Assembly (NCBI GenBank): GCA_002402965.1 | Contig: DHGW01000049.1 | Coordinates: 3,692-67,691, forward strand | Direction of reading: 5' to 3' | DNA from: Bacteroidales bacterium UBA4788 | GTDB taxonomy: Bacteria; Bacteroidota; Bacteroidia; Bacteroidales; VadinHA17 | DNA: 64,000 bases | In this document: piece by piece, positions 2,869-30,493 of the stretch | Layout: each line of letters begins with the position of its first letter | How positions within the stretch are numbered: position 1 is the first letter of the stretch | Program-made: the position numbers and the translations under genes | Notes under the pieces: generated by a model | Seen by the model: only the letters and a program-made list of their open reading frames with translations | Told to the model about the DNA's origin: nothing | The model's database searches: none

Positions 2869-5292
2869 TCAGAATTGTGCTGTCAGTTTCAGATTGAGGC
2901 TTCTTCTCGTGAGATAGTTAGGTACAGCATACTCTCTTGTTTCTCCCTGGCTGTTTCTGACAGTACGGATCCAAGTATATGAGATCGTGTTCCTTATGTC
3001 GGACAGATTGAAGATCTCAAATCCGGCAACCAGCTCTTTCATGAACGACTCCTTCCTCTTTGCTGAACCACCTGAGAGCACCTTTGAGAAGCCTATATCA
3101 ATTCTTCTGTAGGGAGGCATCCTGAACCAGATGTCCCATTGATCAATTCCTGGTGGCGAAGTTGGAATGCCGGTACCGAATGCAAGATTTATGTGGGCTC
3201 TGAAATCAGGGTGAGAAGGGAGGTAATCCTGGAAGAAGATGCTGAAGTGTACCCTCTGATCAAAGGGAGAGGGAAAACGTGCCGTGGAAAGCGAGGGTAT
3301 CTGCATTTCCGATTTCATCAGGGAGAGGCTGAACCACGACTCAACACCGGGAACGAACTCTCCATTGACTCTCATATCTATTCCGGCCGAATAACCTCTG
3401 GCAATGTTGCCACCGTAGTACACAAGCCTGACATTGTCAACCAGGTATGGTACCAGGCGGTCAAAGTGTTTGCCCCATGCTTCTGCAGTGAATCTGAATG
3501 GTCTCTCCCATGCAATGAAATCGTAGCGTGCCCCTGCCGTCAGGTGGTATGAGCGTTGTGCCTTCAGGCGCCTTGCACCGGTTCCTTCTTCGAGCATCAG
3601 CTCTCGTCCTGCCGGAGGCTGATGGTAAGCACCTGCAGCGATATATAATAAGAAGCTCCTGCTCAGCTCCGTCCTGACAGAGATGCGGGGTGAGACCAGC
3701 AGCTCAGAGCTGTAGGTATCATATGACGTCCTTATCCCGGCATTGAGGTCGCTTGCCCTGTCTGCAATCATGAAACTGGCCCGGCTGATGATCCATCCCC
3801 CGGCGGTGAAGCTTCTGGCTGCAACTCTCAGCTCAGACCGTGAAGTGAGCACAAGTCCGTCACCTGTTCCTCCAAGTGTAAAGCCTGCGGAGTCTACCCT
3901 CAGCCATTCGTCACGGTGTGAGTCATTGCTCTTGTACCTTGCAGTCAAACCCCACTCCAGGCCGTTTCTTCCGGAGAGGATGGATCCCTGGTATGAAACA
4001 CCTGTCAATGTGCTCCGGAAAGAGTTGCGGGCGTGAGAGAGCCAACTTCCAACCCCGGCATTGATCAGAGTGTCGGGTTTGTTCTCACTGCCTATATTCT
4101 GGTCAAGCGAGAAGAGATTGTACGCACCCCTGATGTCATAGTTCTCATTTTCCCCTGCAATTTGAGCTGAGATAATGAATTTGGAGGCAAGGCGTTCATT
4201 GTGTTTGAGTTCGAGTGTGATAGCGCCTCCGCCGCTGTTATACCTGTCACGTTCCCCTCCTTCAAAGAAGGTATAGAGACGGTAAGCCTTCTCAAATGTC
4301 CCGAATGTAGTAGTCCGGCTTTGCGGTATAAAGATGTAGTTGTTTGATGAGCCCCAGAGAGAAAGGGTGAGTTTAGTGTTCATGTCAGGCTGATAACCGC
4401 CAATGGCCTGAATATCTGCAAAATGAGGCCGGTATGCGCCGCGGTCCTCAAGGCTGCCCAGGAGTATGGCATTGGAACGGTACCGTGCACCGGCAATGAA
4501 CCAGAGCCTTTCATCCCTGCTCCTCGCACCGGCATGTACCGAAGAGGTAAGAAGGCTCAGTGAGACTGATCCTTCTCTGTTCTCAGGCTCACGGTAGTTT
4601 ATATCGAGCACTGATGACATCCTGTCTCCGTATGATGCGCTGAATCCTCCGGGGGAGAAATTCACCGAGGCAGTCAGGTCGGGATTGATCCTGCTCAGAC
4701 CCTCCTGTTGCCCGGTCCGGATGAGGTAAGGCCGGTATACTTCGACACCATTGATATATACCAGGTTTTCGTCATAGCTGCCACCCCGGACCGAATAGCC
4801 TGAGCTAAGTTCACTGTATGAGGCAACTCCCGGCAGGGTTGCTATGGCAGCTTCAATACCCCCGGTTACTGATGGTATCACAGCTCCTGCTACCGACGGA
4901 ATACTTATGACTGTAATATTATCAGGCCTGGTGGCGGTCACTTTCACATCGCCAATGCTGATTACTTCCGGTAACAACTCTATCATGAGCTGGCCGGCCG
5001 GCTTTGCAGCAGCCATGTCCAGAGTGTCATTTATGTATCCTAAAGATGAGAAGATGAGAGTAATGCGGTCACCGGCGCCAGGGTCAAAAATCAGTCTGAA
5101 GGTGCCGTCTTCACCGGTAACGGTACCTTTGTTGAAGTCAGGCACAAAGACTGTGACTCCGGGGATATGAAACCCGGCTGTGTCAGTGACGGTACCTGAA
5201 ATAACCCGCTCCTGTGCCTGGACCAGGGAGGGGGCGAATATACCAGGCAAAGCAATAATAAGGGGGAGTATTTTTCTGGATGACCATGTCAT
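2869..5292 (-). CDS. TonB-dependent outer-membrane receptor with an N-terminal carboxypeptidase-regulatory-like domain
   Basis: The order of elements is signal peptide, CarboxypepD_reg-like stretch (ISGTVTD...GVTVFV...TGEDGTFRL), plug-like region (LPGV...SVRGG...VYINGVEV), then a long beta-barrel ending in a terminal Phe. Confidence 0.7.
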   Translation of the reverse strand: MTWSSRKILPLIIALPGIFAPSLVQAQERVISGTVTDTAGFHIPGVTVFVPDFNKGTVTGEDGTFRLIFDPGAGDRITLIFSSLGYINDTLDMAAAKPAGQLMIELLPEVISIGDVKVTATRPDNITVISIPSVAGAVIPSVTGGIEAAIATLPGVASYSELSSGYSVRGGSYDENLVYINGVEVYRPYLIRTGQQEGLSRINPDLTASVNFSPGGFSASYGDRMSSVLDINYREPENREGSVSLSLLTSSVHAGARSRDERLWFIAGARYRSNAILLGSLEDRGAYRPHFADIQAIGGYQPDMNTKLTLSLWGSSNNYIFIPQSRTTTFGTFEKAYRLYTFFEGGERDRYNSGGGAITLELKHNERLASKFIISAQIAGENENYDIRGAYNLFSLDQNIGSENKPDTLINAGVGSWLSHARNSFRSTLTGVSYQGSILSGRNGLEWGLTARYKSNDSHRDEWLRVDSAGFTLGGTGDGLVLTSRSELRVAARSFTAGGWIISRASFMIADRASDLNAGIRTSYDTYSSELLVSPRISVRTELSRSFLLYIAAGAYHQPPAGRELMLEEGTGARRLKAQRSYHLTAGARYDFIAWERPFRFTAEAWGKHFDRLVPYLVDNVRLVYYGGNIARGYSAGIDMRVNGEFVPGVESWFSLSLMKSEMQIPSLSTARFPSPFDQRVHFSIFFQDYLPSHPDFRAHINLAFGTGIPTSPPGIDQWDIWFRMPPYRRIDIGFSKVLSGGSAKRKESFMKELVAGFEIFNLSDIRNTISYTWIRTVRNSQGETREYAVPNYLTRRSLNLKLTAQF

Positions 5293-16223: not shown

Positions 16224-17687
16224 ATGAAAACCAATCGCAGGAATTTCCTTCGTACTGCAGCAGTAGCCGGGGCCGGCACTATTACTGCAGCCTCTGTGGC
16301 CTCATGCTCCCGCCGTGATAAGCCGACTGAAGCCATGCCTTTTGTCAGTGAGGCAGTCAGGGCCAGACATACCCAGAGTTTCAACATGTCAGGTTACGCA
16401 GCACCGCCACTGGAGAAAGTGCGCACAGCTTTTATCGGACTCGGTATGAGGGGTCCTGGTGCCGTGGAGCGTATGGCCCACATCGAGGGTGTGGAGATAG
16501 GCGCACTGTGCGACAAGTATCCCGACAGGGTGGAAAAGGTTCAGGCGATTCTTGCCAAGTTCGGTCTCCCGCGGGCAAAGAGTTTCAGTGGAAGTGAGGA
16601 GGCATGGAAGGGAGTCTGCGATGACCCTGACATTGACCTGGTGTACATCTGCACACCGTGGGAGTGGCATACACCCATGGCGGTCTATGCCATGGAGGCT
16701 GGCAAGCATGTGGCGGTGGAAGTGCCGGCAGCAAAGACGGTTGATGAATGCTGGCAGCTGGTGGAGGTGTCAGAACGCACGAAGCGGCACTGCATGCAGT
16801 TGGAGAACTGTTGTTATGATTTCTTCGAACTGCTGACCCTGAATATGGCCCGGCAGGGGCTCTTCGGTGACATCGTCCACGGAGAAGGGGCATATATTCA
16901 TGACCTGCGCTGGGACTTCACCTATGACAAGAACGGCTATGCCGATATGTGGAGACTGAAAGAGAATGTGCGCAACGGGAATCTCTATCCGACCCACGGT
17001 CTGGGACCGGTATGCCAGGTAATGAATATCAACAGGGGCGACAGGATGGAATACCTTACATCGCTCTCCACAAACGACTTCGCCATGGGTCCGGATCTTG
17101 AGCAGTTAGCCAGGGAGGACCCGTTTTATACTCCTTTTGCAGGAAAGACATACCGTGGAAACATGAACACTACGCTCATCAAGACAAATCTCGGCAGGAG
17201 TATCATGATTCAGCATGACGTCTCCAGTCCGAGACCCTATTCGAGGATTCATCTGATAAGCGGCACCAAGGGATGCGCCAGGAAGTGGCCCTCGCCTGCC
17301 AGGATAGCCCTTGGCCACTCATGGCTGCCGGCAGAGAAAATGGCAGAGATTGAGGCACTGCACACACCGGAGATCGTAAAGAGGGTGGGAGAGATGGCAA
17401 AGGCTATCGGTGGTCATGGCGGTATGGATTTCATAATGGACTGGAGGCTGACCGATTGCCTGCGGAACGGCCTTCCGCTCGACCAGGATGTCTATGATGC
17501 CGCCCTCTGGAGCGTTATAACCCCGCTCAGCGAATGGTCCGTCGCCAACAGGTCAGCTTCGATCGATGTGCCCGACTTTACCTGCGGAGCATGGAAGGCT
17601 AATGCCCCCTTCGATCCGAATCTCCCGGCAGGAGGAAACACAAGGGTTCTTAAGCCGCAGGGAAGTGAATCCCAGCTTGAGGTTTAA
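16224..17687 (+). CDS. TAT-exported Gfo/Idh/MocA-family NAD-dependent oxidoreductase, GH109-like
   Basis: It has a twin-arginine signal (NRRNFLRTAAVAGAG), a Rossmann GxGxxG-like motif (GLGMRG), and a size and architecture typical of glycoside hydrolase family 109-like proteins. Confidence 0.7.
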   Translation: MKTNRRNFLRTAAVAGAGTITAASVASCSRRDKPTEAMPFVSEAVRARHTQSFNMSGYAAPPLEKVRTAFIGLGMRGPGAVERMAHIEGVEIGALCDKYPDRVEKVQAILAKFGLPRAKSFSGSEEAWKGVCDDPDIDLVYICTPWEWHTPMAVYAMEAGKHVAVEVPAAKTVDECWQLVEVSERTKRHCMQLENCCYDFFELLTLNMARQGLFGDIVHGEGAYIHDLRWDFTYDKNGYADMWRLKENVRNGNLYPTHGLGPVCQVMNINRGDRMEYLTSLSTNDFAMGPDLEQLAREDPFYTPFAGKTYRGNMNTTLIKTNLGRSIMIQHDVSSPRPYSRIHLISGTKGCARKWPSPARIALGHSWLPAEKMAEIEALHTPEIVKRVGEMAKAIGGHGGMDFIMDWRLTDCLRNGLPLDQDVYDAALWSVITPLSEWSVANRSASIDVPDFTCGAWKANAPFDPNLPAGGNTRVLKPQGSESQLEV

Positions 17688-17770: not shown

Positions 17771-19765
17771 ATGTTCAGCACCGTTACTTTTTTGATCATT
17801 TTGCTTTTAACGTTGCTGGTCTTCGCGATTCCTAAACCGCTGAAGTACCACTACACGCTGGGGTTGCTGGTTGCAGGAACGGCACTGACCACCGCCTGGA
17901 GCATCAGTGTGCTGACAGGGACGGAAATATTAAAGGAGATTCCCCTGTTCACGCCCGCTGCCGGCAGCCGTTTTGTTCTGGTAATCGATCCCCTGTCTGC
18001 ATTCTTCATTCTTGTAATCAATATTACAGTACTTATCGGGTTCCTCTATGCCAGAGGCTATCTCGCACCATATGGACAGAGGATGAATGCCCTCCGCTTT
18101 TCGATACATTACTTCTCATACCTGTGGCTCTGGCTGTCGATGCTGATGGTGGTAATGATACGCGACGGCCTTCCGTTCCTGATTGTATGGGAGATAATGG
18201 CCCTCTCATCCTTCTTCCTGGTAATCTTTGACGCGGAGGAGAGGAGTATCATGAAGACCGGCATAAGCTACCTGATCCAGATGCACGTCGGGATGTTCTT
18301 CATCCTGGTGGCCTTCCTGCTGCTTCAGAATGAGACCGGAAAGATGAGCTTCGATGCTCTGGGAGAATACTTCTCCGTGCATCGCAACCTGCCGCTCTTT
18401 CTTCTTTTCTTTGCCGGGTTTGCCATCAAGGCCGGTTTTATTCCGCTCCACACATGGCTTCCGGAGGCGCATCCCGCTGCCCCGTCACATGTCTCAGGGG
18501 TGATGTCGGGAGTGATGATCAAGATGGGAATTTACGGTATTTTACGGGTACTGATTCCGATGCAGTCTGACCTGCTGGAGACCGGTGTCATCATCCTTGT
18601 TGTCTCGTTAATCTCAGGTATTATGGGAGTGATGATGGCTATAGTGCAGCATGACCTGAAGAGGCTGCTGGCCTATCACAGCATAGAAAACATTGGCATC
18701 ATCGGCATCGGGTTAGGCCTGGGGGTGATAGGACAGGCCCTCGGTAATCCGGCGCTTGCCCTGCTGGGATTCTCAGGTGGAATCCTGCATATTCTGAATC
18801 ACTCCCTCTTCAAGTCACTGCTCTTTTTCAATGCCGGATCTGTGTATCATGCCACCCACACCCGCAATATGGAGCAGTTGGGAGGAGTGATGAAGAGGAT
18901 GCCGTGGACTGCCATGCTGTTCCTGACAGGTTCACTGGCCATATGCGGTCTGCCTCCCTTTAACGGCTTTATCTCGGAATACCTGATATATATGGGGATG
19001 TTTAACAGCCTCTCCGGAGCGACACTCTTTCACTCCATAATGATAGTGGGATCTGTTGCATCGTTGTCACTCATAGGAGGACTTGCCATCTTCTGCTTTA
19101 CCAAGGCCTTCGGGGTGGTCTTTCTCGGCGAGCCGCGGTCTGAGGCTGCAAGACATGCCGGCGAGGTCAGTGGCTCCATGATCATCCCACAGCTCTTTAC
19201 CGTGGCTCTGATACTGCTCATCGGGTTGGGCTCGCCATTGGTGGTGAAGCCGGTTTTTAACATCGTTACCCGGGCCTGGAACCTGGGCGGCCAGCCAATG
19301 ATCACCGGAGCCTTTACCTCCAACCTGTCACAGATAAGCATTGCCGGAGGAGTTTTTGTCGTCACCCTTGCAGTACTGCTGCTATACCGCAGGTACCACC
19401 TCAGCCGCAGGAACGTTACGGCCGGTCCTACATGGGGGTGCGGCTACACTGCTGTTACTGCCAAACAACAGTATACGGCCACCTCGTTCGCCTATAACTA
19501 CAACCACCTGGCCAAACCGGTGCTGCAAACACGGAAGGAAATTGACGAGATAGGGGAGAGCGAGATTTTTCCGCGGAGGAGGAAATTCGTTTCGCACAGC
19601 GATGACCTCTTCAGGAAGTATCTGATAGACAGGCCTGTGGATTTGGTCGCCGGGTTGCTCAAGAGAATCGCTGTGATGCAGACCGGGCAGATAAGGCATT
19701 ATATTCTCTATGCATTTGTATTCATGCTGCTGGTACTGCTGCTGGCAATGTTCAATATACTGTGA
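17771..19765 (+). CDS. HyfB / NuoL-like antiporter-type membrane subunit
   Basis: 664 aa and polytopic. It carries Mrp/NuoL-M-N family motifs: WEIMAL, AIKAGFIPLHTWLPEAHPAAPSHVS and HSLFKSLLF. Confidence 0.8.
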   Translation: MFSTVTFLIILLLTLLVFAIPKPLKYHYTLGLLVAGTALTTAWSISVLTGTEILKEIPLFTPAAGSRFVLVIDPLSAFFILVINITVLIGFLYARGYLAPYGQRMNALRFSIHYFSYLWLWLSMLMVVMIRDGLPFLIVWEIMALSSFFLVIFDAEERSIMKTGISYLIQMHVGMFFILVAFLLLQNETGKMSFDALGEYFSVHRNLPLFLLFFAGFAIKAGFIPLHTWLPEAHPAAPSHVSGVMSGVMIKMGIYGILRVLIPMQSDLLETGVIILVVSLISGIMGVMMAIVQHDLKRLLAYHSIENIGIIGIGLGLGVIGQALGNPALALLGFSGGILHILNHSLFKSLLFFNAGSVYHATHTRNMEQLGGVMKRMPWTAMLFLTGSLAICGLPPFNGFISEYLIYMGMFNSLSGATLFHSIMIVGSVASLSLIGGLAIFCFTKAFGVVFLGEPRSEAARHAGEVSGSMIIPQLFTVALILLIGLGSPLVVKPVFNIVTRAWNLGGQPMITGAFTSNLSQISIAGGVFVVTLAVLLLYRRYHLSRRNVTAGPTWGCGYTAVTAKQQYTATSFAYNYNHLAKPVLQTRKEIDEIGESEIFPRRRKFVSHSDDLFRKYLIDRPVDLVAGLLKRIAVMQTGQIRHYILYAFVFMLLVLLLAMFNIL

Positions 19766-20679
19766 CTATGGCAGGATTTATACTGATAGTGGTTGCAGCA
19801 TTCTTCTTCCCGGGGATCATCCTCAGGACGAAGAGCCTCGCTTCGGGGCGGAAGGGGCCGGGCATATTCCAGCCGCTGAAGGATATAGTCGTGCTCTTCA
19901 GAAAGGGAAGCGTCTTCAGCAATACCACCGGGATTATATTCCGCATAGCGCCTTCAGTAACGCTGGCAACAGTGTCAGGCGCCATGCTGCTGCTTCCCTT
20001 CGCAGAACAGAAGGCGGTGATCTCCTTCGAGGGCGACTTTATCTTTTTCGCATACCTGCTGGCTCTTGGGAAGTTCTTTACAATCATTGCCGCGCTGGAT
20101 ACGGGCAGCAGCTTTGAAGGTATGGGCGCAAGCCGTGAGGCTCTCTTCTCTATGCTCGTTGAACCGGCATTCTTTGTGCTGCTGGCAACCTTCGCCATGT
20201 TCACGGGGTATACGTCATTCTCCGTGATTTTCAACCACTTTTATGTCACTGGAAATGATTACGTATTGATTTATAGTATTATAGGTGCGTATCTTTTTGT
20301 GCAGATCGCCATGGTTGAAAACAGCCGGCTCCCGGTTGATGACCCGAAGACACACCTGGAGCTGACAATGATCCATGAGGTAATGATACTTGACTACAGC
20401 GGTTTCGACAAGGCTCTCATACACATTGGGACATACCTGAAATTTGCCATTTACGGATCTCTGATCTATAACCTGGTAGTACCGGCGGGGTGGAATATCA
20501 TGTTGCAGATCGGGCTTTTCGTGGCCGTTCAGGGTTTATTTGCCGTAGTGATTGGTTTTACGGAATCGTTCAGGGCAAGGAACAAGATGAACAAGAACCC
20601 GAAATTCATTTTAACCCTGTCGGCGATTGCACTCATAGCATTTATAGTGATACTGATACTGACTGATAAACTTGCCTGA
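19762..20679 (+). CDS. HyfC / HycD / NuoH-like membrane subunit
   Basis: 305 aa and polytopic. The loop ENSRLPVDDPKTHLEL...DYSG matches the NuoH/HycD ExxRxPxD...EL...EYSG pattern. The start is either the GTG at 19762, which overlaps the upstream stop, or the ATG at 19768. Confidence 0.8.
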   Translation: MTMAGFILIVVAAFFFPGIILRTKSLASGRKGPGIFQPLKDIVVLFRKGSVFSNTTGIIFRIAPSVTLATVSGAMLLLPFAEQKAVISFEGDFIFFAYLLALGKFFTIIAALDTGSSFEGMGASREALFSMLVEPAFFVLLATFAMFTGYTSFSVIFNHFYVTGNDYVLIYSIIGAYLFVQIAMVENSRLPVDDPKTHLELTMIHEVMILDYSGFDKALIHIGTYLKFAIYGSLIYNLVVPAGWNIMLQIGLFVAVQGLFAVVIGFTESFRARNKMNKNPKFILTLSAIALIAFIVILILTDKLA

Positions 20680-20686
20680 AAGCATT

Positions 20687-21301
20687 ATGGTAAACTATCT
20701 CATAGTACTGTTTGCAATCACACTGATGTACTTCGCTTCGGCAGAGAGGCTGACAACCTATGTCAGGCTCGTGGCGCTCCAGGGTCTTCTGCTCTGTGGC
20801 ATTGCTGTGTTTGAGCTGAAGGAGGTCAACCTGGCGAATCTGCTCTTCATCGTGGCAGAGACACTGCTCTTCAAAGCAGTGGTGCTGCCTTACCTTCTCA
20901 GCCGGATAATAAGAAAGTCGGGAGTGACGAAGGTGCACCGCCAGGCTGTCCCGGGCTTCTACCTTCTGCTGTTTTCAATTGCCGGGTTGGTTGTAAGCGT
21001 AATCCTTGCAACGATCCTGGTAAATCCATTCATCAACCCGATTTACCTGGCGATTGCTCTTTTCACACTATTCACCGGGCTTTTGCTGATTGTCACTCAT
21101 AAGCTGATCATTTCCCATTTGATCGGTTTCCTGGTTGTGGAAAACGCTGTATTTCTCTTTTCACTGGCGATAGGTAATGAGATGCCGATGCTCATCAACG
21201 TCGGCATCTTACTTGACCTTTTCGTGGGTGTTCTGATACTTGGTTTTTTCGGGTTAAGGCTCAAACCCCACACGAATGAGCTTACGATGTTAAAAGATTA
21301 G
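20687..21301 (+). CDS. HyfE / NuoK-like membrane subunit
   Basis: About 204 aa and polytopic, with a membrane-embedded Glu in VVENAVFLF. I preferred the ATG at 20687 over the TTG at 20672. Confidence 0.7.
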   Translation: MVNYLIVLFAITLMYFASAERLTTYVRLVALQGLLLCGIAVFELKEVNLANLLFIVAETLLFKAVVLPYLLSRIIRKSGVTKVHRQAVPGFYLLLFSIAGLVVSVILATILVNPFINPIYLAIALFTLFTGLLLIVTHKLIISHLIGFLVVENAVFLFSLAIGNEMPMLINVGILLDLFVGVLILGFFGLRLKPHTNELTMLKD

Positions 21302-21303
21302 CG

Positions 21304-22731
21304 ATGATGTTGTTGCTTTTCTTCATACTATCAATAGCGCTGAGTGGCGCGACGCTCCTTTCCCGTGACAGGACCGTCACGAAGGCTATTGCACTGGCCT
21401 TTGCAGCGATGCTCATCGCTGTCACGGTGCATGCCTGGATTAACACCGGCAAAACTGAACTGATATATTTTACTTATGACAGCACGGCTGTACTGCTTCT
21501 TTCGGTGCTGGCGCTGCTAACGATGCCCACAGTTTACCACGGGTTCATCTATACGCGTGACGATGCGGTAAAAAAATATAATATCTACCACTCCGGGCTG
21601 ATCGCGCTTATGACCTTCATGGCAGGAGCCTACCTGGCAAATACAATGACGGTCCTATGGATATTTGTGGAGGCCACCACCCTGGCGGTTGCTGTGCTCA
21701 TCTATCATGACCGGACAGAGATGTCCCTGGAAGCTACATGGAAGTACGTATTCATCTGTTCCACAGGTATTGCACTTGCCTATCTGGGCATACTCTTCCT
21801 CGGGTTCATCAATGGCAGGGGTGACGCACCCAACCTCTCCTTCTCATCATTCGGCCTTGTGATCAGCAACGCCGACCCGATGTACCTGAGGATAGCCTTC
21901 ATATTCGTGCTGGTGGGATTCAGCACAAAGATGGGTCTCTTTCCGATGCATACCGTCACAATAGACGCTCACTCTGTGGCGCCTCCGCCGGTGAGTGCCC
22001 TCATCTCAACCACCCTCATGAACGTCGGATTCCTGGCCATATACAGGGTTTATACACTCTTCTCATCCACCTCAGTGCTGCCCTTCATGAATCATGTGCT
22101 GGTGCTGGCGGGCCTGCTTTCACTTCTCGTCTCCGCGGGCTACATGCTCAAGGCGAAGCACCTGAAGCGCATGCTTGCCTACTCGAGTCTTGAGAATATG
22201 GGCCTGGTGGCCATAGCCCTCGGCACCGGGAAATATGGATATTATGCGGCGTTACTGCTGATCGTGCTGCATTCACTAGCCAAATCAAGCCTGTTTTACC
22301 AGATGGGGCAGCTTTCGAGGATACTGCACACCTTCAGGCTTGACGAGAGTGGCAGGTACATGAAGCTTTACCCGGCTGGAGCAATGGTCCTGCTGACGGG
22401 TATGATCTGCATCCTGGCCATCCCTCCGTCAGGGATGTTCATATCGGAATTCCTGATTTTCAAGGCTATGGTCAGTAACGGCCAGTGGTTCGTTCTGGCG
22501 ACAACCATTATCCTGCTCTGCTTCGTCATTTACGCAATGAGCACGAGGATAATGCATGTCAATTTCTCCTCCCCGCGAAACGGTACTGAGCTGAAGATGC
22601 CCGGCAAAGTAAGTCCCGCCGAGACTGTCAGCCAGTTCGTTCTGCTTACACTGGTAATCATGATCTGCTTTTACCAGCCGCCATTTCTGGTTACCCTGAT
22701 CAATAATAGTATAGCCCTGCTTCCCAGATAG
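21304..22731 (+). CDS. HyfF / NuoN(M)-like antiporter-type membrane subunit
   Basis: 475 aa. Its motifs are FVEATTLAV, FSTKMGLFPMH...DAHSVAPPPVSAL and HSLAKSSLF. Confidence 0.8.
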   Translation: MMLLLFFILSIALSGATLLSRDRTVTKAIALAFAAMLIAVTVHAWINTGKTELIYFTYDSTAVLLLSVLALLTMPTVYHGFIYTRDDAVKKYNIYHSGLIALMTFMAGAYLANTMTVLWIFVEATTLAVAVLIYHDRTEMSLEATWKYVFICSTGIALAYLGILFLGFINGRGDAPNLSFSSFGLVISNADPMYLRIAFIFVLVGFSTKMGLFPMHTVTIDAHSVAPPPVSALISTTLMNVGFLAIYRVYTLFSSTSVLPFMNHVLVLAGLLSLLVSAGYMLKAKHLKRMLAYSSLENMGLVAIALGTGKYGYYAALLLIVLHSLAKSSLFYQMGQLSRILHTFRLDESGRYMKLYPAGAMVLLTGMICILAIPPSGMFISEFLIFKAMVSNGQWFVLATTIILLCFVIYAMSTRIMHVNFSSPRNGTELKMPGKVSPAETVSQFVLLTLVIMICFYQPPFLVTLINNSIALLPR

Positions 22732-22736
22732 AAAAG

Positions 22737-24257
22737 ATGAGCAGCAACTTATATACAGAAGTAAGGAACGGATCAGGTCCGGTTGGGATCAGGGAGATCC
22801 CGGTACTTGATTACGGCCGTTTTTATGAAGAGGTCATAAGTCTGCTTGGCAATGAGCGATACCACTGTCTGACCTACTTTTGTTACCCTGCGGGACCGGT
22901 CCTGAAGTTTATCTGCTGTATCGCCGATGACGGATCCGGGACGATCAGGATACTGAGCCACGAAAAAAGTGATGACGGAGCCCCGCTGCGCTCACTGACA
23001 GAGTCATGTTACGCGATGCATATCTTTGAGCGTGAGATACATGAGAACCATGGCGTGAAGTATGATGGGCATCCCTGGCTGAAGCCGGTGAGGTATCCGC
23101 ACGACAGGGCTGACCGGCAGAATGTAATGGCCAACTATCCCTTTTATGAGATGGAGAGTGAGGAGCTTCACGAGGTGGGGGTGGGGCCCATTCATGCCGG
23201 TGTGATTGAGCCTGGTCACTTCAGATTCATCTGCAACGGAGAGAAGGTGCTGCATCTGGAGATACAGCTTGGTTACCAGCACCGGGGGATTGAAAAGCTC
23301 TTTGCTGATGAAGTTGATGGGCTGCGCCGTGCGATGCTGGCGGAAAATATTGCAGGTGACACAGCTGTTGGTCACGGGCTGGCCTATGCCCAGCTTGCTG
23401 AGTCGCTTGCCGGATACATGCCTTCCGGTTCACTGCAGGCGGAGAGGTGCATCGCACTTGAGCTGGAGCGTATCGCCGTACATATTGGAGATACAGCTGC
23501 ACTCTGTGGCGATGTGGCTTATCAGCTGGGTCAGGTGGCATCCGAGGCGCTGAGGACCGTGGTTATAAATACAACGCAGAGCTGGTGCGGTAACCGGTTC
23601 GGAAAAGGATTGATTCGCCCGGGCGGGACAAATTTTCCTCTCGATGAAGAGATAGCCGGAGAGTTACTCAGGAACCTTGAGGTGGTTGACAGACGGTTCG
23701 GTACCGTGACTGACTGCGTCTACACCCTGCCCAGCGTCCTGGGACGGTTTGAGGAGATAGGCACAGTCACACGTGCCCAGGCAATTGCAATTGGCGCCGT
23801 CGGAATGGTGGCGCGCACCTGCGGGGTGCCGAGGGACACACGTGCAACTCACCCCTTCCAGTATTACAGGCAAATGGCGATCACGCCGGCAATGCAGGAG
23901 AACGGAGATGTGCTGGCGCGGGGGATGCTGAGGGCACTTGAGGTAAAGGAATCGGTGAAGATCATCCGCAGGCTGCTGGATGAGTGGCGGGCAGGAGAAA
24001 AGACAAGCGGACGACCCCGCTATGACCTCAGCTTCACTCCTGATAGTCTGGCGATCTCTGTAACTGAGGGTTGGCGAGGGGAGATCTGTCATGTGGCAGT
24101 CACCGACGGCGACGGCCGACCGGTGCTGTGGAGGATCAAGGACCCTTCAATGCACAACTGGATGGCATTGGCCCTGGCAGTACGCAACCAGGAGATATCT
24201 GACTTCCCGGTATGCAACAAGAGCTTCAATCTTTCATATTGCGGCAATGATTTGTAA
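22737..24257 (+). CDS. NuoC-NuoD fusion / HyfG-HycE-like large subunit lacking the [NiFe] cysteine ligands
   Basis: The N-terminal 30-kDa (NuoC-like) part is fused to a NuoD/large-subunit core (VGPIHAGVIEPGHFRF...LEIQLGYQHRGIEKL). The position of the CGxCxxxH motif reads AGDTAVGH (23352-23375). The C-terminus reads DFPVCNKSFNLSYCGNDL, with no DPCxxC motif. Confidence 0.8.
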   Translation: MSSNLYTEVRNGSGPVGIREIPVLDYGRFYEEVISLLGNERYHCLTYFCYPAGPVLKFICCIADDGSGTIRILSHEKSDDGAPLRSLTESCYAMHIFEREIHENHGVKYDGHPWLKPVRYPHDRADRQNVMANYPFYEMESEELHEVGVGPIHAGVIEPGHFRFICNGEKVLHLEIQLGYQHRGIEKLFADEVDGLRRAMLAENIAGDTAVGHGLAYAQLAESLAGYMPSGSLQAERCIALELERIAVHIGDTAALCGDVAYQLGQVASEALRTVVINTTQSWCGNRFGKGLIRPGGTNFPLDEEIAGELLRNLEVVDRRFGTVTDCVYTLPSVLGRFEEIGTVTRAQAIAIGAVGMVARTCGVPRDTRATHPFQYYRQMAITPAMQENGDVLARGMLRALEVKESVKIIRRLLDEWRAGEKTSGRPRYDLSFTPDSLAISVTEGWRGEICHVAVTDGDGRPVLWRIKDPSMHNWMALALAVRNQEISDFPVCNKSFNLSYCGNDL

Positions 24258-24276
24258 ATAAACTAATTGCGGAGAA

Positions 24277-25029
24277 ATGCTAAAAGAAATCAAGATACTC
24301 GCCGATCACGGAAAACAGTTTGTGCCCGATCTCCGGAATCAGCCTGTCTCTGCCCGTTTCAGGGGAAGGCCGGTAATCTCCGAGGATATTACATCAGAGC
24401 AGGCGGAGAAGGCTGCGGCAATGTGTCCGGCTGGTGCAATTGACAGGCGCAGCGGCGCTACTGACCTTGGCAGGTGCACCTTCTGTAACGAGTGTGCACT
24501 GATGCTGCCCGGGGTGTACCGTTTTACAAATGACTACCGTATTGCTGCAACAAGAAGAGAAAGCCTCGTGGTTAAGCCGGGCCAGTCAGATCAGCTCAGG
24601 ATTGACGAGACCGCAGTAAGAAAAGAGATTCGCAGGCTCTTCAGAAGGTCTCTCAAACTGCGCCAGGTCTCTGCCGGAGGGGACAACTCTTGCGAGATGG
24701 AGCTTGGGGCAGCGGGAAACGTAAACTTTGATATGGGCAGGTACGGTATTGAGTTCGTGGCCTCGCCCCGTCATGCCGACGGCATTGTGATCACCGGACC
24801 GGTATCTGCCAATATGGCTGAAGCTCTTGAAATTTGCTACGACGCTACTCCTTCACCAAAGGTTATAATCCTCGTCGGCACCGATGCCATCAGCGGCGGG
24901 CTCTTTGCCGGCAGCCCTGCGGTGAAGAGGAATTTCATAGAAAATCATCACATTGATCTTTACTTGCCGGGCAACCCGGCTCATCCGCTGACATTTATCA
25001 ACGGGGTGATGGACCTGCTTAAGCTTTGA
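24277..25029 (+). CDS. Fusion of a one-cluster ferredoxin remnant with a NuoB/HycG-like subunit lacking most Fe-S ligands
   Basis: The N-terminal part has C50-P plus C67xxC70xxC73. The complementary cluster positions are S40, A43, A46 and L77. The NuoB-like core is FVASPRHADGIVITGPV, but its ligand positions read GGDNSCE, GTDAISGG and PGNP, where homologs have CxxC, GxCxxxGG and PGCP. Confidence 0.75.
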   Translation: MLKEIKILADHGKQFVPDLRNQPVSARFRGRPVISEDITSEQAEKAAAMCPAGAIDRRSGATDLGRCTFCNECALMLPGVYRFTNDYRIAATRRESLVVKPGQSDQLRIDETAVRKEIRRLFRRSLKLRQVSAGGDNSCEMELGAAGNVNFDMGRYGIEFVASPRHADGIVITGPVSANMAEALEICYDATPSPKVIILVGTDAISGGLFAGSPAVKRNFIENHHIDLYLPGNPAHPLTFINGVMDLLKL

Positions 25030-25143
25030 GTCTGCTGTCCTAAATATACTGATCGCAGGTTGGAATTGGGGAAAATATGGAATCTGCCTTCCTGAACGGG
25101 GCTTTTTACTACCTTAGTTACTTCATTGCAACAACACTGTAAT

Positions 25144-28419: not shown

Positions 28420-29070
28420 TCAGAGCATTTGCCTTATGGCCATCGATGCCAGGAGATCTGCCGCAGCCTGTGCGGAGTCTGAGATATTCTCAATGTGATG
28501 GGTGACGTATCTTATGTGAGCCTTCTCAGCCAGTGAGAGGTCATGCATTTCATGAAAGACTTTCTTCTTCATCTGGAAGGCAGCCTTATCGGTCTCCCTC
28601 TCGAAGAAGTAGACTCTGATTAATTTCTCACGGACCAGGTGCGGCTCGCGGAAAAAGGCTCTTGCAGCAGGCATCAGTTCCTCTGCGGCATTGCCGGAGA
28701 CCTCGGCCAGTGAGATGAAGTCGTGTGAAAGTGAAGCAGGCACGTAGGGCATCTCAACATAAAACTCGTTAAGTGATTTTTTGGCTGTGTCAATTATCTC
28801 GTCAAGCTGCCAGAGAAGCTTCACGATTTCACTCCGTTGCTGGGGCAGGATGGAGTGCACAATCATGTCATTCTCAATGCTTCGCTGAAGCTTATCAGCC
28901 TTACCTTCAAGGTCATCAATCTTGGAAATGTGATTCTGGAATGCATTGTTGTCACCGTTGACGTATGCCTTGATGCCCTCCTTGAAGATCAGTATCCCGA
29001 TCTCAATGGTATCAAAGAATTCATCAATTCTTACAGTGAGTTCCCTGGTTGTGCGGGTGAATAGCGACAT
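28420..29070 (-). CDS. DUF47-family (PhoU-like) protein, the usual partner of PiT transporters
   Basis: It is a helical protein of about 217 aa directly upstream of the PiT gene, with a 2-nt gap. I chose the ATG at 29070 because the longer track ORF (to 29283) would overlap the upstream exonuclease gene. Confidence 0.7.
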   Translation of the reverse strand: MSLFTRTTRELTVRIDEFFDTIEIGILIFKEGIKAYVNGDNNAFQNHISKIDDLEGKADKLQRSIENDMIVHSILPQQRSEIVKLLWQLDEIIDTAKKSLNEFYVEMPYVPASLSHDFISLAEVSGNAAEELMPAARAFFREPHLVREKLIRVYFFERETDKAAFQMKKKVFHEMHDLSLAEKAHIRYVTHHIENISDSAQAAADLLASMAIRQML

Positions 29071-29128
29071 CTGAGGGTCAGTGTTGGTTAGGGCAAATAT
29101 ATTAAGAAAAGAGCAGTGGCATGGCGTA

Positions 29129-30493
29129 TCAGAAATCAATAATTTTTTCCACCCTGTGATTCCTGAGGTAGCTCTTGATGATGACCTGAATGTCGCGATT
29201 ATCTGCTGCCGGTTTAATACATTCATGCACCGCCAGAAGCCCGAATCCCACATCGTTGATGCTAAAAAAGCCAAAGCCGGCATACTTGCCGTTGACGATT
29301 TTGACTGCTGACCGTTCCTCCACGTCGCGTCCGTGGTCTATGATAAAAAAGTTCCTTTCCCTGAAGATAAATTCATCGAGGGCCATTAGAGCTCGCTCAT
29401 TGTATGATTTCGGATCTTCCGTACCAGTGCATGCACCCCTGCAGAGGCCTACCTGGTGATGAAAACAGGCTCCTCCGGTCTCATACAGGCCGCAAAGTTT
29501 CTGGCAGAGGTTGTATGCGGTTATGATCTGCTCGAGCTTTCCCCGTGCCCTGTCGCGGGAGGTAAAAAGGGCAAGTGGCACCTCATCGTCGCTTACATTC
29601 CTGTAAGAAAACCTGATGTAGCCTTCTTTATCGGTATCGCTCCATATGCCCCAGCGGAATCCCGTTCGCCGCTGCGCCCTGTTGAAGCGCGGTTTTTTGC
29701 TTTTTATTTCGGCTGACTCCATCAGCAGGGCGATCAGCTCGCTGCCGGTCCTTTCCCAGGAAATGCCGGCTGTCATAGAGCGCATCTCCATCTCCCGGAC
29801 GGAAGTGTTGTTGGAGAGATGGGTGTTAATTCTCTGGCTCAGGTTTCGGCTTTTCCCCACGTAGAGAATGTCACCCTTTTCGTCGTGAAAGAAGTAGATG
29901 CCAGGCTCTTCCGGAATATCCTTCAGGCTTTCCGGATTGAGGTCGGGATGAAGCTTTGCCGCCTTCCTGTTCCTGATCAGGCTGCCCGACCTTAGCGAGT
30001 TGTCCTTTTCAATCAGCAGTTCCAGAAGCCTGACCGTGGCAAGAGCATCACCAGAGGCCCTGTGCCTTCCGTTGATCGTGATCCCGAGGTCCTTGCACAG
30101 GTTGCCCAGACCATACGACTTATGTCCAGGGAGGAGCTTTCTGCTCAGGGCTACGGTATCAAGCATCGGCCGTTTGAAATTATAGCCAAGCATGCTGAAC
30201 TCCTGCCTGATGAATGAGTAGTCAAACCTGGCATTGTGTGCCACAAAGACATGTTCCTCAGTGATCTCCACGATCCTGCGGGCCACCTCATAGAATTTCG
30301 GGGCATCCTCCACCATCTCGTTGGTGATGCCGGTCAGGGAGGTTATGAAGTATGGTATATTGCGTTCAGGATTGATGAGTGTTGAGTATTCCTCAACGAT
30401 GCGCTCACCGTCATGGATGTATACGGCAATCTCTGTTATCCTCTCAAGCCTGGCGCTTCCCCCTGTTGTCTCTATGTCGATGACAGCATACAT
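29129..30493 (-). CDS. DnaQ-like 3'-5' exonuclease (DEDDh) fused to a GIY-YIG nuclease domain
   Basis: The Exo motifs are VIDIETTG, HNARFDYSF and HRASGDA. These are followed by GIYFFHDEKGDILYVGKSRNLSQR (GIY-YIG) and a Cys-rich stretch, CFHHQVGLCRGAC. Confidence 0.8.
   Translation of the reverse strand: MYAVIDIETTGGSARLERITEIAVYIHDGERIVEEYSTLINPERNIPYFITSLTGITNEMVEDAPKFYEVARRIVEITEEHVFVAHNARFDYSFIRQEFSMLGYNFKRPMLDTVALSRKLLPGHKSYGLGNLCKDLGITINGRHRASGDALATVRLLELLIEKDNSLRSGSLIRNRKAAKLHPDLNPESLKDIPEEPGIYFFHDEKGDILYVGKSRNLSQRINTHLSNNTSVREMEMRSMTAGISWERTGSELIALLMESAEIKSKKPRFNRAQRRTGFRWGIWSDTDKEGYIRFSYRNVSDDEVPLALFTSRDRARGKLEQIITAYNLCQKLCGLYETGGACFHHQVGLCRGACTGTEDPKSYNERALMALDEFIFRERNFFIIDHGRDVEERSAVKIVNGKYAGFGFFSINDVGFGLLAVHECIKPAADNRDIQVIIKSYLRNHRVEKIIDF

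Follow-up and report, generated by a model that had tools for sequence, protein, structure and literature searches.

The 64,000-nucleotide stretch of contig DHGW01000049.1 of Bacteroidales bacterium UBA4788 (assembly GCA_002402965.1; positions 3,692 to 67,691 of the forward strand), referred to below as the window, carries a six-gene operon, ehrABCDLS. On the basis of its sequences this operon very probably encodes an Ehr ('energy-converting hydrogenase-related') complex, a class known since 2005. Its last gene, ehrS, encodes a small subunit in which a NuoI-like ferredoxin domain is fused to a NuoB-like domain and most of the expected iron-sulfur (Fe-S) ligands are replaced. Judged by its residues, EhrS can ligate a single [4Fe-4S] cluster, and the site of the proximal (N2-type) cluster is occupied by conserved Asp, Asp and Asn residues. 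All coordinates below refer to the window unless a related locus is named.

Ligand positions in EhrS and the large subunit EhrL

The ehrS gene and the features that determine its cofactor content are as follows:

24277..25029, + strand: ehrS, small subunit, NuoI-like domain fused to a NuoB-like domain, 250 amino acids
24277..24606, + strand: N-terminal NuoI/HycF-like domain, residues 1-110, with a predicted helix (2-14) and a one-cluster ferredoxin core
24424..24429, + strand: C50-P51, the surviving 'CP' of ferredoxin motif 1 (C50 corresponds to NuoI C70 in the alignment to NuoI)
24475..24495, + strand: C67-T-F-C70-N-E-C73, the intact motif 2 (NuoI C99, C102 and C105 in the same alignment)
24505..24510, + strand: L77-P78, where the CP cysteine of motif 2 is expected (L77 corresponds to NuoI C109)
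24628..25026, + strand: NuoB/HycG/MbhJ-like domain, residues 118-250 (PF01058, 1.2e-19; MbhJ, 3.6e-22)
24682..24693, + strand: D136-N-S-C139 (GACAACTCTTGC), at the first two N2 ligand cysteine positions
24883..24885, + strand: D203 (GAT), at the third N2 ligand cysteine (GxCxxxGG)
24973..24975, + strand: N233 (AAC), at the fourth N2 ligand cysteine (PGCP)

A direct check of the open reading frame (ORF) and its codons showed that ehrS is uninterrupted, with an ATG start and no internal stops. The protein contains six cysteines in total (50, 67, 70, 73, 139 and 187) and is without seven of the twelve canonical Fe-S ligand cysteines. Two complete CxxCxxCxxxCP motifs, comprising eight cysteines, are not present in the N-terminal domain, which retains only C50, C67, C70 and C73. 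The first-pass annotation of this DNA had placed S40, A43 and A46 at the CxxCxxC positions counted back from C50, and L77 at the last ligand of the second motif, and the residue and codon check bore this out. In dicluster ferredoxins each cluster is bound by three cysteines of one motif and the CP cysteine of the other. Since C50 together with C67, C70 and C73 makes up one complete ligand set, exactly one ferredoxin cluster can form, and EhrS, as read from these residues, is able to ligate only one [4Fe-4S] cluster.

The alignment of EhrS residues 25-100 to residues 41-133 of Escherichia coli NuoI is weak but specific (E about 0.02-0.04) and extends to NuoI-specific flanks, namely RFRGRP against RYRGR, and FTNDYRIAATRRESLV against LTPDFEMGEYKRQDLV (NuoI pattern TPDF...R..LV). 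By sequence, this region is of the NuoI type rather than a generic ferredoxin. The N-terminal domain also matches the NCBIfam HycF-family model PRK12387 (2.5e-4) and TIGR01971 (3.9e-3), both below cut-off, while two single-cluster Pfam models, Fer4_13 (26.3 bits; cut-off 24.5) and Fer4_15 (23.4 bits; cut-off 22.4), are just exceeded.

The C-terminal domain matches the NCBIfam NuoB models below their cut-offs (82.8 versus 116 bits). In HMMER alignments to solved structures, D136 and C139 fall on the two N-terminal ligand cysteines of MbhJ (6cfw_J; E 3.6e-22) and HycG (7z0s_G), D203 falls on the GxCxxxGG cysteine and N233 on the PGCP cysteine. These alignments, together with the codons, uphold the assignment of D, C, D and N to the NuoB-like ligand positions in the first-pass annotation, at 24682-24693, 24883-24885 and 24973-24975. 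As far as the aligned residues tell, the four-cysteine proximal cluster site is gone from EhrS. The stretch FVASPRHADGIVITGPV begins at EhrS residue 160. An AlphaFold2 model based on an alignment of 55 sequences has a mean predicted local distance difference test (pLDDT) score of 89 and a predicted template modelling (pTM) score of 0.87. Its C-terminal half was placed by Foldseek on HycG, MbhJ and NDUFS7 with a probability of 1.00 (root-mean-square deviation 1.7-2.5 Å over 127-141 columns). The modelled NuoB fold is thus retained in EhrS despite the loss of the ligands.

The gene directly upstream encodes the large subunit, which has likewise lost its metal ligands:

22737..24257, + strand: ehrL, fused NuoC-like and HycE/NuoD-like large subunit, 506 amino acids (PF00346, PF00329)
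23352..23363, + strand: A206-G-D-T209 of ehrL, the former N-terminal NiFe CxxC
24234..24245, + strand: S500-Y-C-G503 of ehrL, the former C-terminal NiFe CxxC

The best solved relative of EhrL is HycE (7z0s_E; 2e-32). In the alignment, 'RVCGICGFAH' of HycE is opposed by 'NIAGDTAVGH' and 'DPCYSCTDR' by 'NLSYCGNDL', so that the four NiFe cysteine positions are A206, T209, S500 and G503. Columns were counted in 70 aligned Bacteroidota orthologs, 67-68 of which have a residue at the NiFe columns, and in none of these is a cysteine found at any of the four positions. Position 206 is occupied by A, S, V or T and position 209 by T, S, A or M, with G207 and D208 invariant, while S500 and G503 are each conserved in 67/67 orthologs and the tail NKSFNLSYCG(H/N)DL is highly conserved. 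The replacement motif AGD(T/S)..GH, with its invariant D208 between the former cysteine positions, is strongly conserved, and the two replacement motifs suggest a new conserved pocket.

The Tyr of the 'MDY' motif of Thermus Nqo4, which we take to be the quinone-binding Y87, aligns to EhrL G207. Furthermore, the beta1-beta2 loop of EhrL is hydrogenase-like (GPIHAGVIEPGHFRF) and has no His at the position taken as H38. With this numbering, the alignment indicates that the NuoD-type quinone-binding Tyr/His pair is not in EhrL. Neither the NiFe cysteines nor the proximal cluster ligands of a functional group 4 [NiFe]-hydrogenase are present in the two subunits.

Conservation of EhrS and repeated loss of the N2 site

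A protein database search with EhrS returned at least 8,000 matches, of which the best 120 (at least 73 % identical) were aligned with the query for column counts. All of these 121 sequences have D136, N233, C50, C67 and C70, while 120 of them have C73 and 120 have C139. A scan of one genome per species with a six-sequence profile showed that at least 527 species-level genomes encode an EhrS relative. The best 80 loci were analysed, every one of which bears the label Bacteroidota or that of a group belonging to it. Rikenella/Rikenellaceae are the closest genome relatives (77-86 % identity), and further carriers include Lentimicrobiaceae, Lutibacter, Flavobacteriales, Chitinophagaceae and Saprospirales.

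The 79 orthologs taken from these loci were combined with the window protein, giving 80 genome sequences. D136 is present in 80/80 (GAC in 41, GAT in 39) and N233 also in 80/80 (AAT in 44, AAC in 36), while D203 is conserved in 78/80, the others being one E and one A. Synonymous codon turnover is seen at all three sites, with both codons used at each. The four cluster cysteines are essentially invariant as well, with C67, C70 and C73 each found in 80/80 and C50 in 79/80 genomes, the remaining one being a gap. Positions 40, 43, 46 and 77 vary freely in both the database and the genome sequences. The earlier proposal that one ferredoxin cluster was removed and the other preserved thus agrees with the pattern among orthologs. 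Compared pairwise with the five nearest orthologs whose dS is unsaturated, ehrS has a ratio of nonsynonymous to synonymous substitution rates (dN/dS) of 0.06-0.10 in both domains. Both ehrS and its altered ligand sites are under strong purifying selection.

The first-pass annotation had read the substitutions as an evolved state rather than pseudogenisation, and had set random, non-conserved substitutions among orthologs as the outcome that would refute it. No substitutions of that kind occur at D136, D203 or N233, and the claim stands on their conservation and the low dN/dS. Beyond what that annotation held, the Ehr identity of the complex and the NiFe-less large subunit have been added, and C139 is the least constrained of the four N2 positions, being conserved in 74/80 genome sequences (A in four, T in one and S in one of the others). 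A role for C139 as a surviving functional ligand was considered and rejected, given A, T or S in 6/80 orthologs and a residue other than Cys in most other N2-less clades.

The wider family was explored by a HMMER search of representatives clustered at 50 % identity, which yielded 3,864 relatives, and the best 150 of these were classified by ligand pattern. They form a graded series from twelve-cysteine fusions, with two ferredoxin clusters and N2, through forms with the pattern xxxC-CCCx-CCCC, to N2-less forms. The intermediate pattern, which is found in many relatives, combines the same single ferredoxin cluster as in EhrS with an intact N2. None of the best 150 of the 3,864 relatives combines N2 with only the other ferredoxin cluster. 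Two N2-containing relatives branch next to the Bacteroidota clade in the tree described below. P0128 (loci L082 and L083) belongs to a complete ehrABCDLS operon whose large subunit has no NiFe cysteines. P0126 (L081) is encoded on a 2.6-kb fragment, where its only companions are a large subunit that is likewise NiFe-less and a single antiporter-like gene. The series is consistent with an order of loss in which the NiFe site and the distal cluster went first and N2 followed later in some lineages. A gene for an Rrf2-family regulator follows the N2-containing ehrS in both operons of P0128 (L082:10976-11410 and L083:10976-11410). Rrf2-family regulators often bind Fe-S clusters.

By analogy with complex I, the surviving cluster of EhrS is probably the medial one, adjacent to N2 (the equivalent of N6b), because a two-cluster wire works only if its clusters are neighbours and the relatives pair this cluster with N2. 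This agrees with Thermus Nqo9, in which C63, C98, C101 and C104 are the N6b ligands. A ligand table assigning N6a and N6b to the NuoI motifs was not found in the accessible literature, and we infer the medial assignment from the family pattern.

A second N2-less clade (124 members) was found by a profile search seeded with distant N2-less sequences. Its members are 31-35 % identical to EhrS and, where they carry source names, which few do, derive from Gaiellaceae, Acidimicrobiales, Streptosporangiaceae and Chloroflexota. The one-cluster ferredoxin pattern of EhrS recurs in 107/124, and the N2 positions read D-E-D-S in 79/124, with DVDD, DVDS, DDDS and DIDS as minor variants. Ligand position 1 is Asp in 120/124 and position 3 is Asp or Glu in 120/124, while the equivalent of N233 is S or D. 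The former N2 pocket differs by lineage, being D-C-D-N in the Bacteroidota, D-E-D-S in the Actinomycetota and D/E-x-E-D in Chloroflexota-type loci. Position 2 varies across the clades (C, T, N, V, I, E, D, A), as does position 4 (N, S, D, H, A).

In a neighbour-joining tree each N2-less clade groups with its own cysteine-containing sisters, and the split between the Bacteroidota clade with P0126/P0128 and the second clade with P0207/P0177 was recovered in 100/100 bootstraps. As these clades are so divided and the regain of a four-cysteine site is implausible, the tree indicates that N2 was lost at least twice independently, in the Bacteroidota and in the Actinomycetota/Chloroflexota. In each case the outcome was Asp at ligand position 1 and either Asp or Glu at position 3, and a change from Cys (TGY) to Asp (GAY) takes two nucleotide changes. 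The same carboxylate outcome in the two losses is read here as a sign that carboxylates were selected for where the cluster used to be bound. On a 2.87-Mb contig of the actinobacterial type (L084:8411-10001) the large-subunit gene was predicted only as a 227-amino acid fragment preceded by an opposite-strand ORF, which could stem from a frameshift, from faulty assembly or from genuine truncation.

Two further loci with ehr-like operons, one of which is labelled Chloroflexota, encode N2-less small subunits with the pockets D-T-E-D (L086:8395-10798) and E-C-E-D (L088:5820-8109). Both small subunits keep a two-cluster ferredoxin domain, and both large subunits retain the two NiFe motifs (RLCGVC..H or RVCGAC..H, and ELCYSCLDR). 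Should these NiFe sites be active, electrons would have to be carried by something in the carboxylate pocket. Directly downstream of the L088 small subunit, on the same strand, lies an aldehyde:ferredoxin oxidoreductase (AFOR) gene (L088:8303-10186; AFOR_N/AFOR_C). A link of this lineage to ferredoxin as redox partner is possible.

The operon, its surroundings and the possible role of the complex

The four membrane subunits are encoded upstream of ehrL:

17771..19765, + strand: ehrA, HyfB/NuoL-like antiporter-type membrane subunit, 664 amino acids (PF00361, 4.6e-53)
19762..20679, + strand: ehrB, HycD/NuoH-like membrane anchor of the peripheral arm, 305 amino acids (PF00146 NADHdh, 8.3e-29; syntenic)
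20672..21301, + strand: ehrC, HyfE-like small membrane subunit, 209 amino acids (NCBIfam 'hydrogenase 4 membrane subunit', 2.2e-12, below cut-off; syntenic)
21304..22731, + strand: ehrD, HyfF/MbhH/NuoN-like antiporter-type subunit, 475 amino acids (PF00361, 7.6e-41)

The six genes are tightly packed on the + strand from 17771 to 25029, with ehrS last, and the gaps between them are -4 (the overlap of ehrA and ehrB), -8, 2, 5 and 19 nucleotides. All six frames are intact, as the first-pass annotation had described for ehrS and its operon neighbours. EhrA also matches the NCBIfam model 'hydrogenase 4 subunit B' (1.8e-168, below cut-off), and its gene is conserved at the head of the operon in related loci. 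In the alignment of EhrD to MbsH (6u8y_H) and MbhH (6cfw_H), the Glu in 'FVEAT' is retained, as are the Lys in 'STKMGLFPMH' and the Lys in 'HSLAKSS'. The canonical charged residues of the antiporter-like arm are, by this alignment, kept.

The six ehr genes are present in every related locus with enough contig, in an identical order in nearly all of them, and the antiporter-like family numbers 154 members in 70 loci. When all ORFs of the 80 loci were clustered, only the six ehr genes recurred, and no partner enzyme or accessory gene (formate dehydrogenase, NuoEF, Hyp or a regulator) did so. Within the neighbourhoods covered, namely what is conserved around the operon among the 80 loci and the sequence directly flanking it in the window, no hyp or endopeptidase maturation genes were found. 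In the window the operon is flanked by genes unrelated to the complex, for a GH109-like oxidoreductase, for an M49 peptidase and for a PiT phosphate transporter. The first of these proteins, encoded upstream of the operon (16224-17687), belongs to the Gfo/Idh/MocA oxidoreductases and has both a twin-arginine signal and a lipoprotein-like Cys. A GH109-like gene occurs at this place mainly in the closer relatives (about 20/80 loci) and lies outside the conserved unit. On the - strand, the listed ORFs 28420-29283 and 29129-30493 overlap by 155 nucleotides; the PhoU_div/DUF47 match covers residues 97-282 of the 287-amino acid product of the former, so that its true start is probably downstream. 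In four distant Bacteroidota loci (L059, L062, L066 and L074) about 2 kb separate the ehrA and ehrB matches (locus coordinates about 3000-5200), which suggests an extra gene, perhaps for a third antiporter-like subunit; the window has no such spacer. Promoter and terminator scans of the operon gave counts no different from those in shuffled sequence, a weak terminator-like hairpin at 25086-25102 being the sole candidate after ehrS, and the tRNA and Rfam scans of the window gave no matches.

The explanation that fits these observations best, and which is favoured here with moderate confidence, is that EhrS carries a single, probably medial [4Fe-4S] cluster, that the electron wire is broken, and that the complex, which would be neither a hydrogenase nor a quinone reductase, probably translocates ions. 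Its two parts are held with different firmness. The cofactor content deduced from the sequences, with one ligatable [4Fe-4S] cluster, no N2 and no NiFe ligands, is likely to be correct, and the functional picture of an ion-translocating machine with a regulatory head is put forward tentatively.

In complex I, N6b and N2 lie about 14 Å apart, measured centre-to-centre. A further distance of about 12 Å separates N2 from the quinone site (PMC8577454). From this complex I geometry, the distance between the surviving medial cluster and the large-subunit pocket would be about 23-25 Å. Such a gap would be beyond physiological electron tunnelling, and the complex would therefore be neither a hydrogenase nor a quinone reductase. 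The Fe-S relay of complex I, NDH, MBH, MBS and FHL would then not be usable by it.

The net charge of an [Fe4S4(Cys)4] centre is -2/-3, and the buried pocket that holds it is adapted to stabilising this charge. D136, D203 and N233 may have been selected to fill the old N2 pocket and to keep a buried negative charge there, two or three carboxylates restoring, as we infer, the charge and volume of the cluster. This pocket charge would maintain the NuoB fold, together with the surface through which it meets the large subunit and the NuoH-like anchor. Ions or protons would be moved through the intact antiporter-like arm, the peripheral arm would serve as a conformational or regulatory head, and the single cluster would be a structural or redox-sensing cofactor instead of part of a wire.

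Several observations weigh against this explanation. The invariance of the cluster cysteines across two phyla, which a purely structural or sensing cluster would not call for, would also fit a role in electron transfer, and the conserved former active-site region of EhrL hints at a substrate or reaction site and not a passive lid. L086 and L088 pair N2-less small subunits with large subunits that retain the NiFe motifs, which is hard to reconcile with a broken wire. The medial assignment is drawn from family logic and the Nqo9 ligands, and the tree is a neighbour-joining tree of the NuoB-like domain, of about 120 columns with the four ligand columns masked.

Some of these points recur in the most serious alternative, in itself unlikely, which holds that the complex is still an oxidoreductase and that the pocket of D136, (C139), D203 and N233 binds a carboxylate-ligated metal, for example Fe or Mn, or another cofactor in place of N2. 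The new cofactor would be a relay or catalytic centre, fed with electrons by the surviving [4Fe-4S] cluster, which would itself be reduced by ferredoxin or flavodoxin. Such a pocket would fit the convergent change from Cys to Asp, which affected the same two ligand positions in separate losses of N2, the three carboxylates (D-E-D-S) in 79/124 members of the distant clade, the strict conservation of the four cluster cysteines and the conserved EhrL pocket. It would also fit the NiFe-motif large subunits that accompany the N2-less small subunits of L086 and L088, and the AFOR gene downstream in L088. However, the variability of ligand positions 2 and 4 across the clades does not favour a metal site, and neither electron-input module nor maturation genes are conserved beside the operon in the 80 loci. 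To our knowledge there is no precedent in the superfamily for an Asp/Asp/Asn-ligated [4Fe-4S] cluster or redox relay. The solved structures of complex I, NDH, MBH, MBS and FHL, moreover, all keep a Cys-ligated proximal cluster (PMC8165549, PMC9474812).

It is less probable still that the complex is a redox-independent, Mrp-like cation/proton antiporter, with the peripheral arm as an assembly scaffold, the cluster as a purely structural element and the Asp and Asn residues as space-filling. The wire is broken twice over, with neither N2 nor NiFe, the antiporter-like subunits are intact and the conserved neighbourhood holds no partner dehydrogenase, all of which would agree with such an antiporter, as would the listing of Ehr as a pH homeostasis candidate in an acidophile (PMC6688271). 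However, space-filling leaves unexplained why Asp, two nucleotide changes away from Cys, appeared in two independent lineages, why N233 is invariant, and why the EhrL pocket is so strongly conserved. That ehrS is a pseudogene or a decaying remnant of a hydrogenase small-subunit gene, as the absence of seven of twelve canonical Fe-S ligand cysteines might suggest, has practically no likelihood and is ruled out by the intact ORF, the tight operon, the dN/dS of 0.06-0.10, the invariance of D136 and N233 in 80 sequences, the occurrence in at least 527 genomes and the confident fold.

The favoured explanation, a single cluster with a broken wire, leaves room for a bolder proposal that seems improbable at present: the carboxylate pocket may constitute a functional site new to the complex I superfamily, either a non-cysteinyl metal centre that assumes the relay or catalytic part of the proximal cluster, or a built-in fixed-charge or proton-relay element by which ion translocation is driven or gated with no electron transfer. 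If the pocket does bind a metal or act as a fixed charge, this would bear on the coupling of charge at N2 and the quinone site to ion pumping in complex I. Ehr is widespread: relatives were found in at least 527 species-level genomes, and matching database proteins number in the thousands. It is a proposed link between group 4 hydrogenases and complex I. In a large Bacteroidota branch and, independently, an Actinomycetota/Chloroflexota branch the whole coupling machinery has been kept, with the NiFe site and the proximal cluster removed and conserved carboxylates installed. This narrows the possible mechanisms, as the N2-less branches cannot use the Fe-S relay by which the solved relatives reach the large-subunit site.

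Comparison with known systems

Ehr complexes were reportedly named by Coppi in 2005 for GSU0739-45 of Geobacter sulfurreducens, and Marreiros et al. are said to have surveyed them across prokaryotes in 2013. The gene names and the order ehrABCDLS are established (PMC6688271, PMC7894505), and Ehr is described as 'Ech-/energy-converting hydrogenase-related', group-4-like, without NiFe cysteines and of unknown function (PMC6688271, PMC4378227, PMC6349859, PMC10284858). Further literature likewise defines Ehr by its large subunit and gives its function as unknown (PMC7894505, PMC7304191, PMC6728331), and the 'hyc' genes Rv0081-87 of Mycobacterium tuberculosis are said to be homologous to Ehr (PMC6728331). 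The window operon shares with Ehr the six subunit types and the A-B-C-D-L-S order, and its large subunit is likewise without the cysteines of RxCGxCxxxH and DPCxxCxxR. It represents a Bacteroidota (Rikenellaceae-like) member, and Ehr relatives with an intact N2 also exist. No comment on the small-subunit Fe-S ligands of Ehr was found in the accessible literature, from which Coppi 2005 and Marreiros 2013 are excluded. Conservatively, the half NuoI domain, the replacement of the N2 ligands by D/x/D/N and its convergent recurrence are new relative to that literature, the two founding papers set aside.

With HycG, MbhJ and EchC, and with NuoB (NDUFS7/Nqo6), EhrS shares the PF01058 fold and the scaffolding motifs ASPRHAD, GxxAxSGG and PGxP. 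It differs in having Asp, Asp and Asn at three of the four proximal cysteine positions, the fourth being dispensable in orthologs, and in carrying an N-terminal NuoI-like domain. A Cys-ligated proximal cluster is kept in all of the solved complexes, namely complex I, NDH, MBH, MBS and FHL (PMC8165549, PMC9474812). While NuoI, HycF and MbhN are separate proteins, the corresponding domain of EhrS is fused to the NuoB-like subunit, has a short inter-motif loop (17 residues from C50 to C67) and has one composite cluster left.

The MBS of Pyrococcus furiosus descends from a group 4 hydrogenase, has lost NiFe and has a remodelled proximal ligation, which illustrates that the module can be repurposed (PMC8165549). 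However, MBS keeps three Fe-S clusters, of which the three-cysteine proximal one is proposed to be catalytic, whereas EhrS is without a proximal cluster. With the Mrp Na+/H+ antiporters Ehr shares antiporter-like subunits of the MrpA/MrpD type. The Mrp complexes are without a NuoH-, NuoD- and NuoB-like module, whereas Ehr keeps this module under strong selection. If Ehr is not redox-driven, Mrp would be its plausible functional analogue.

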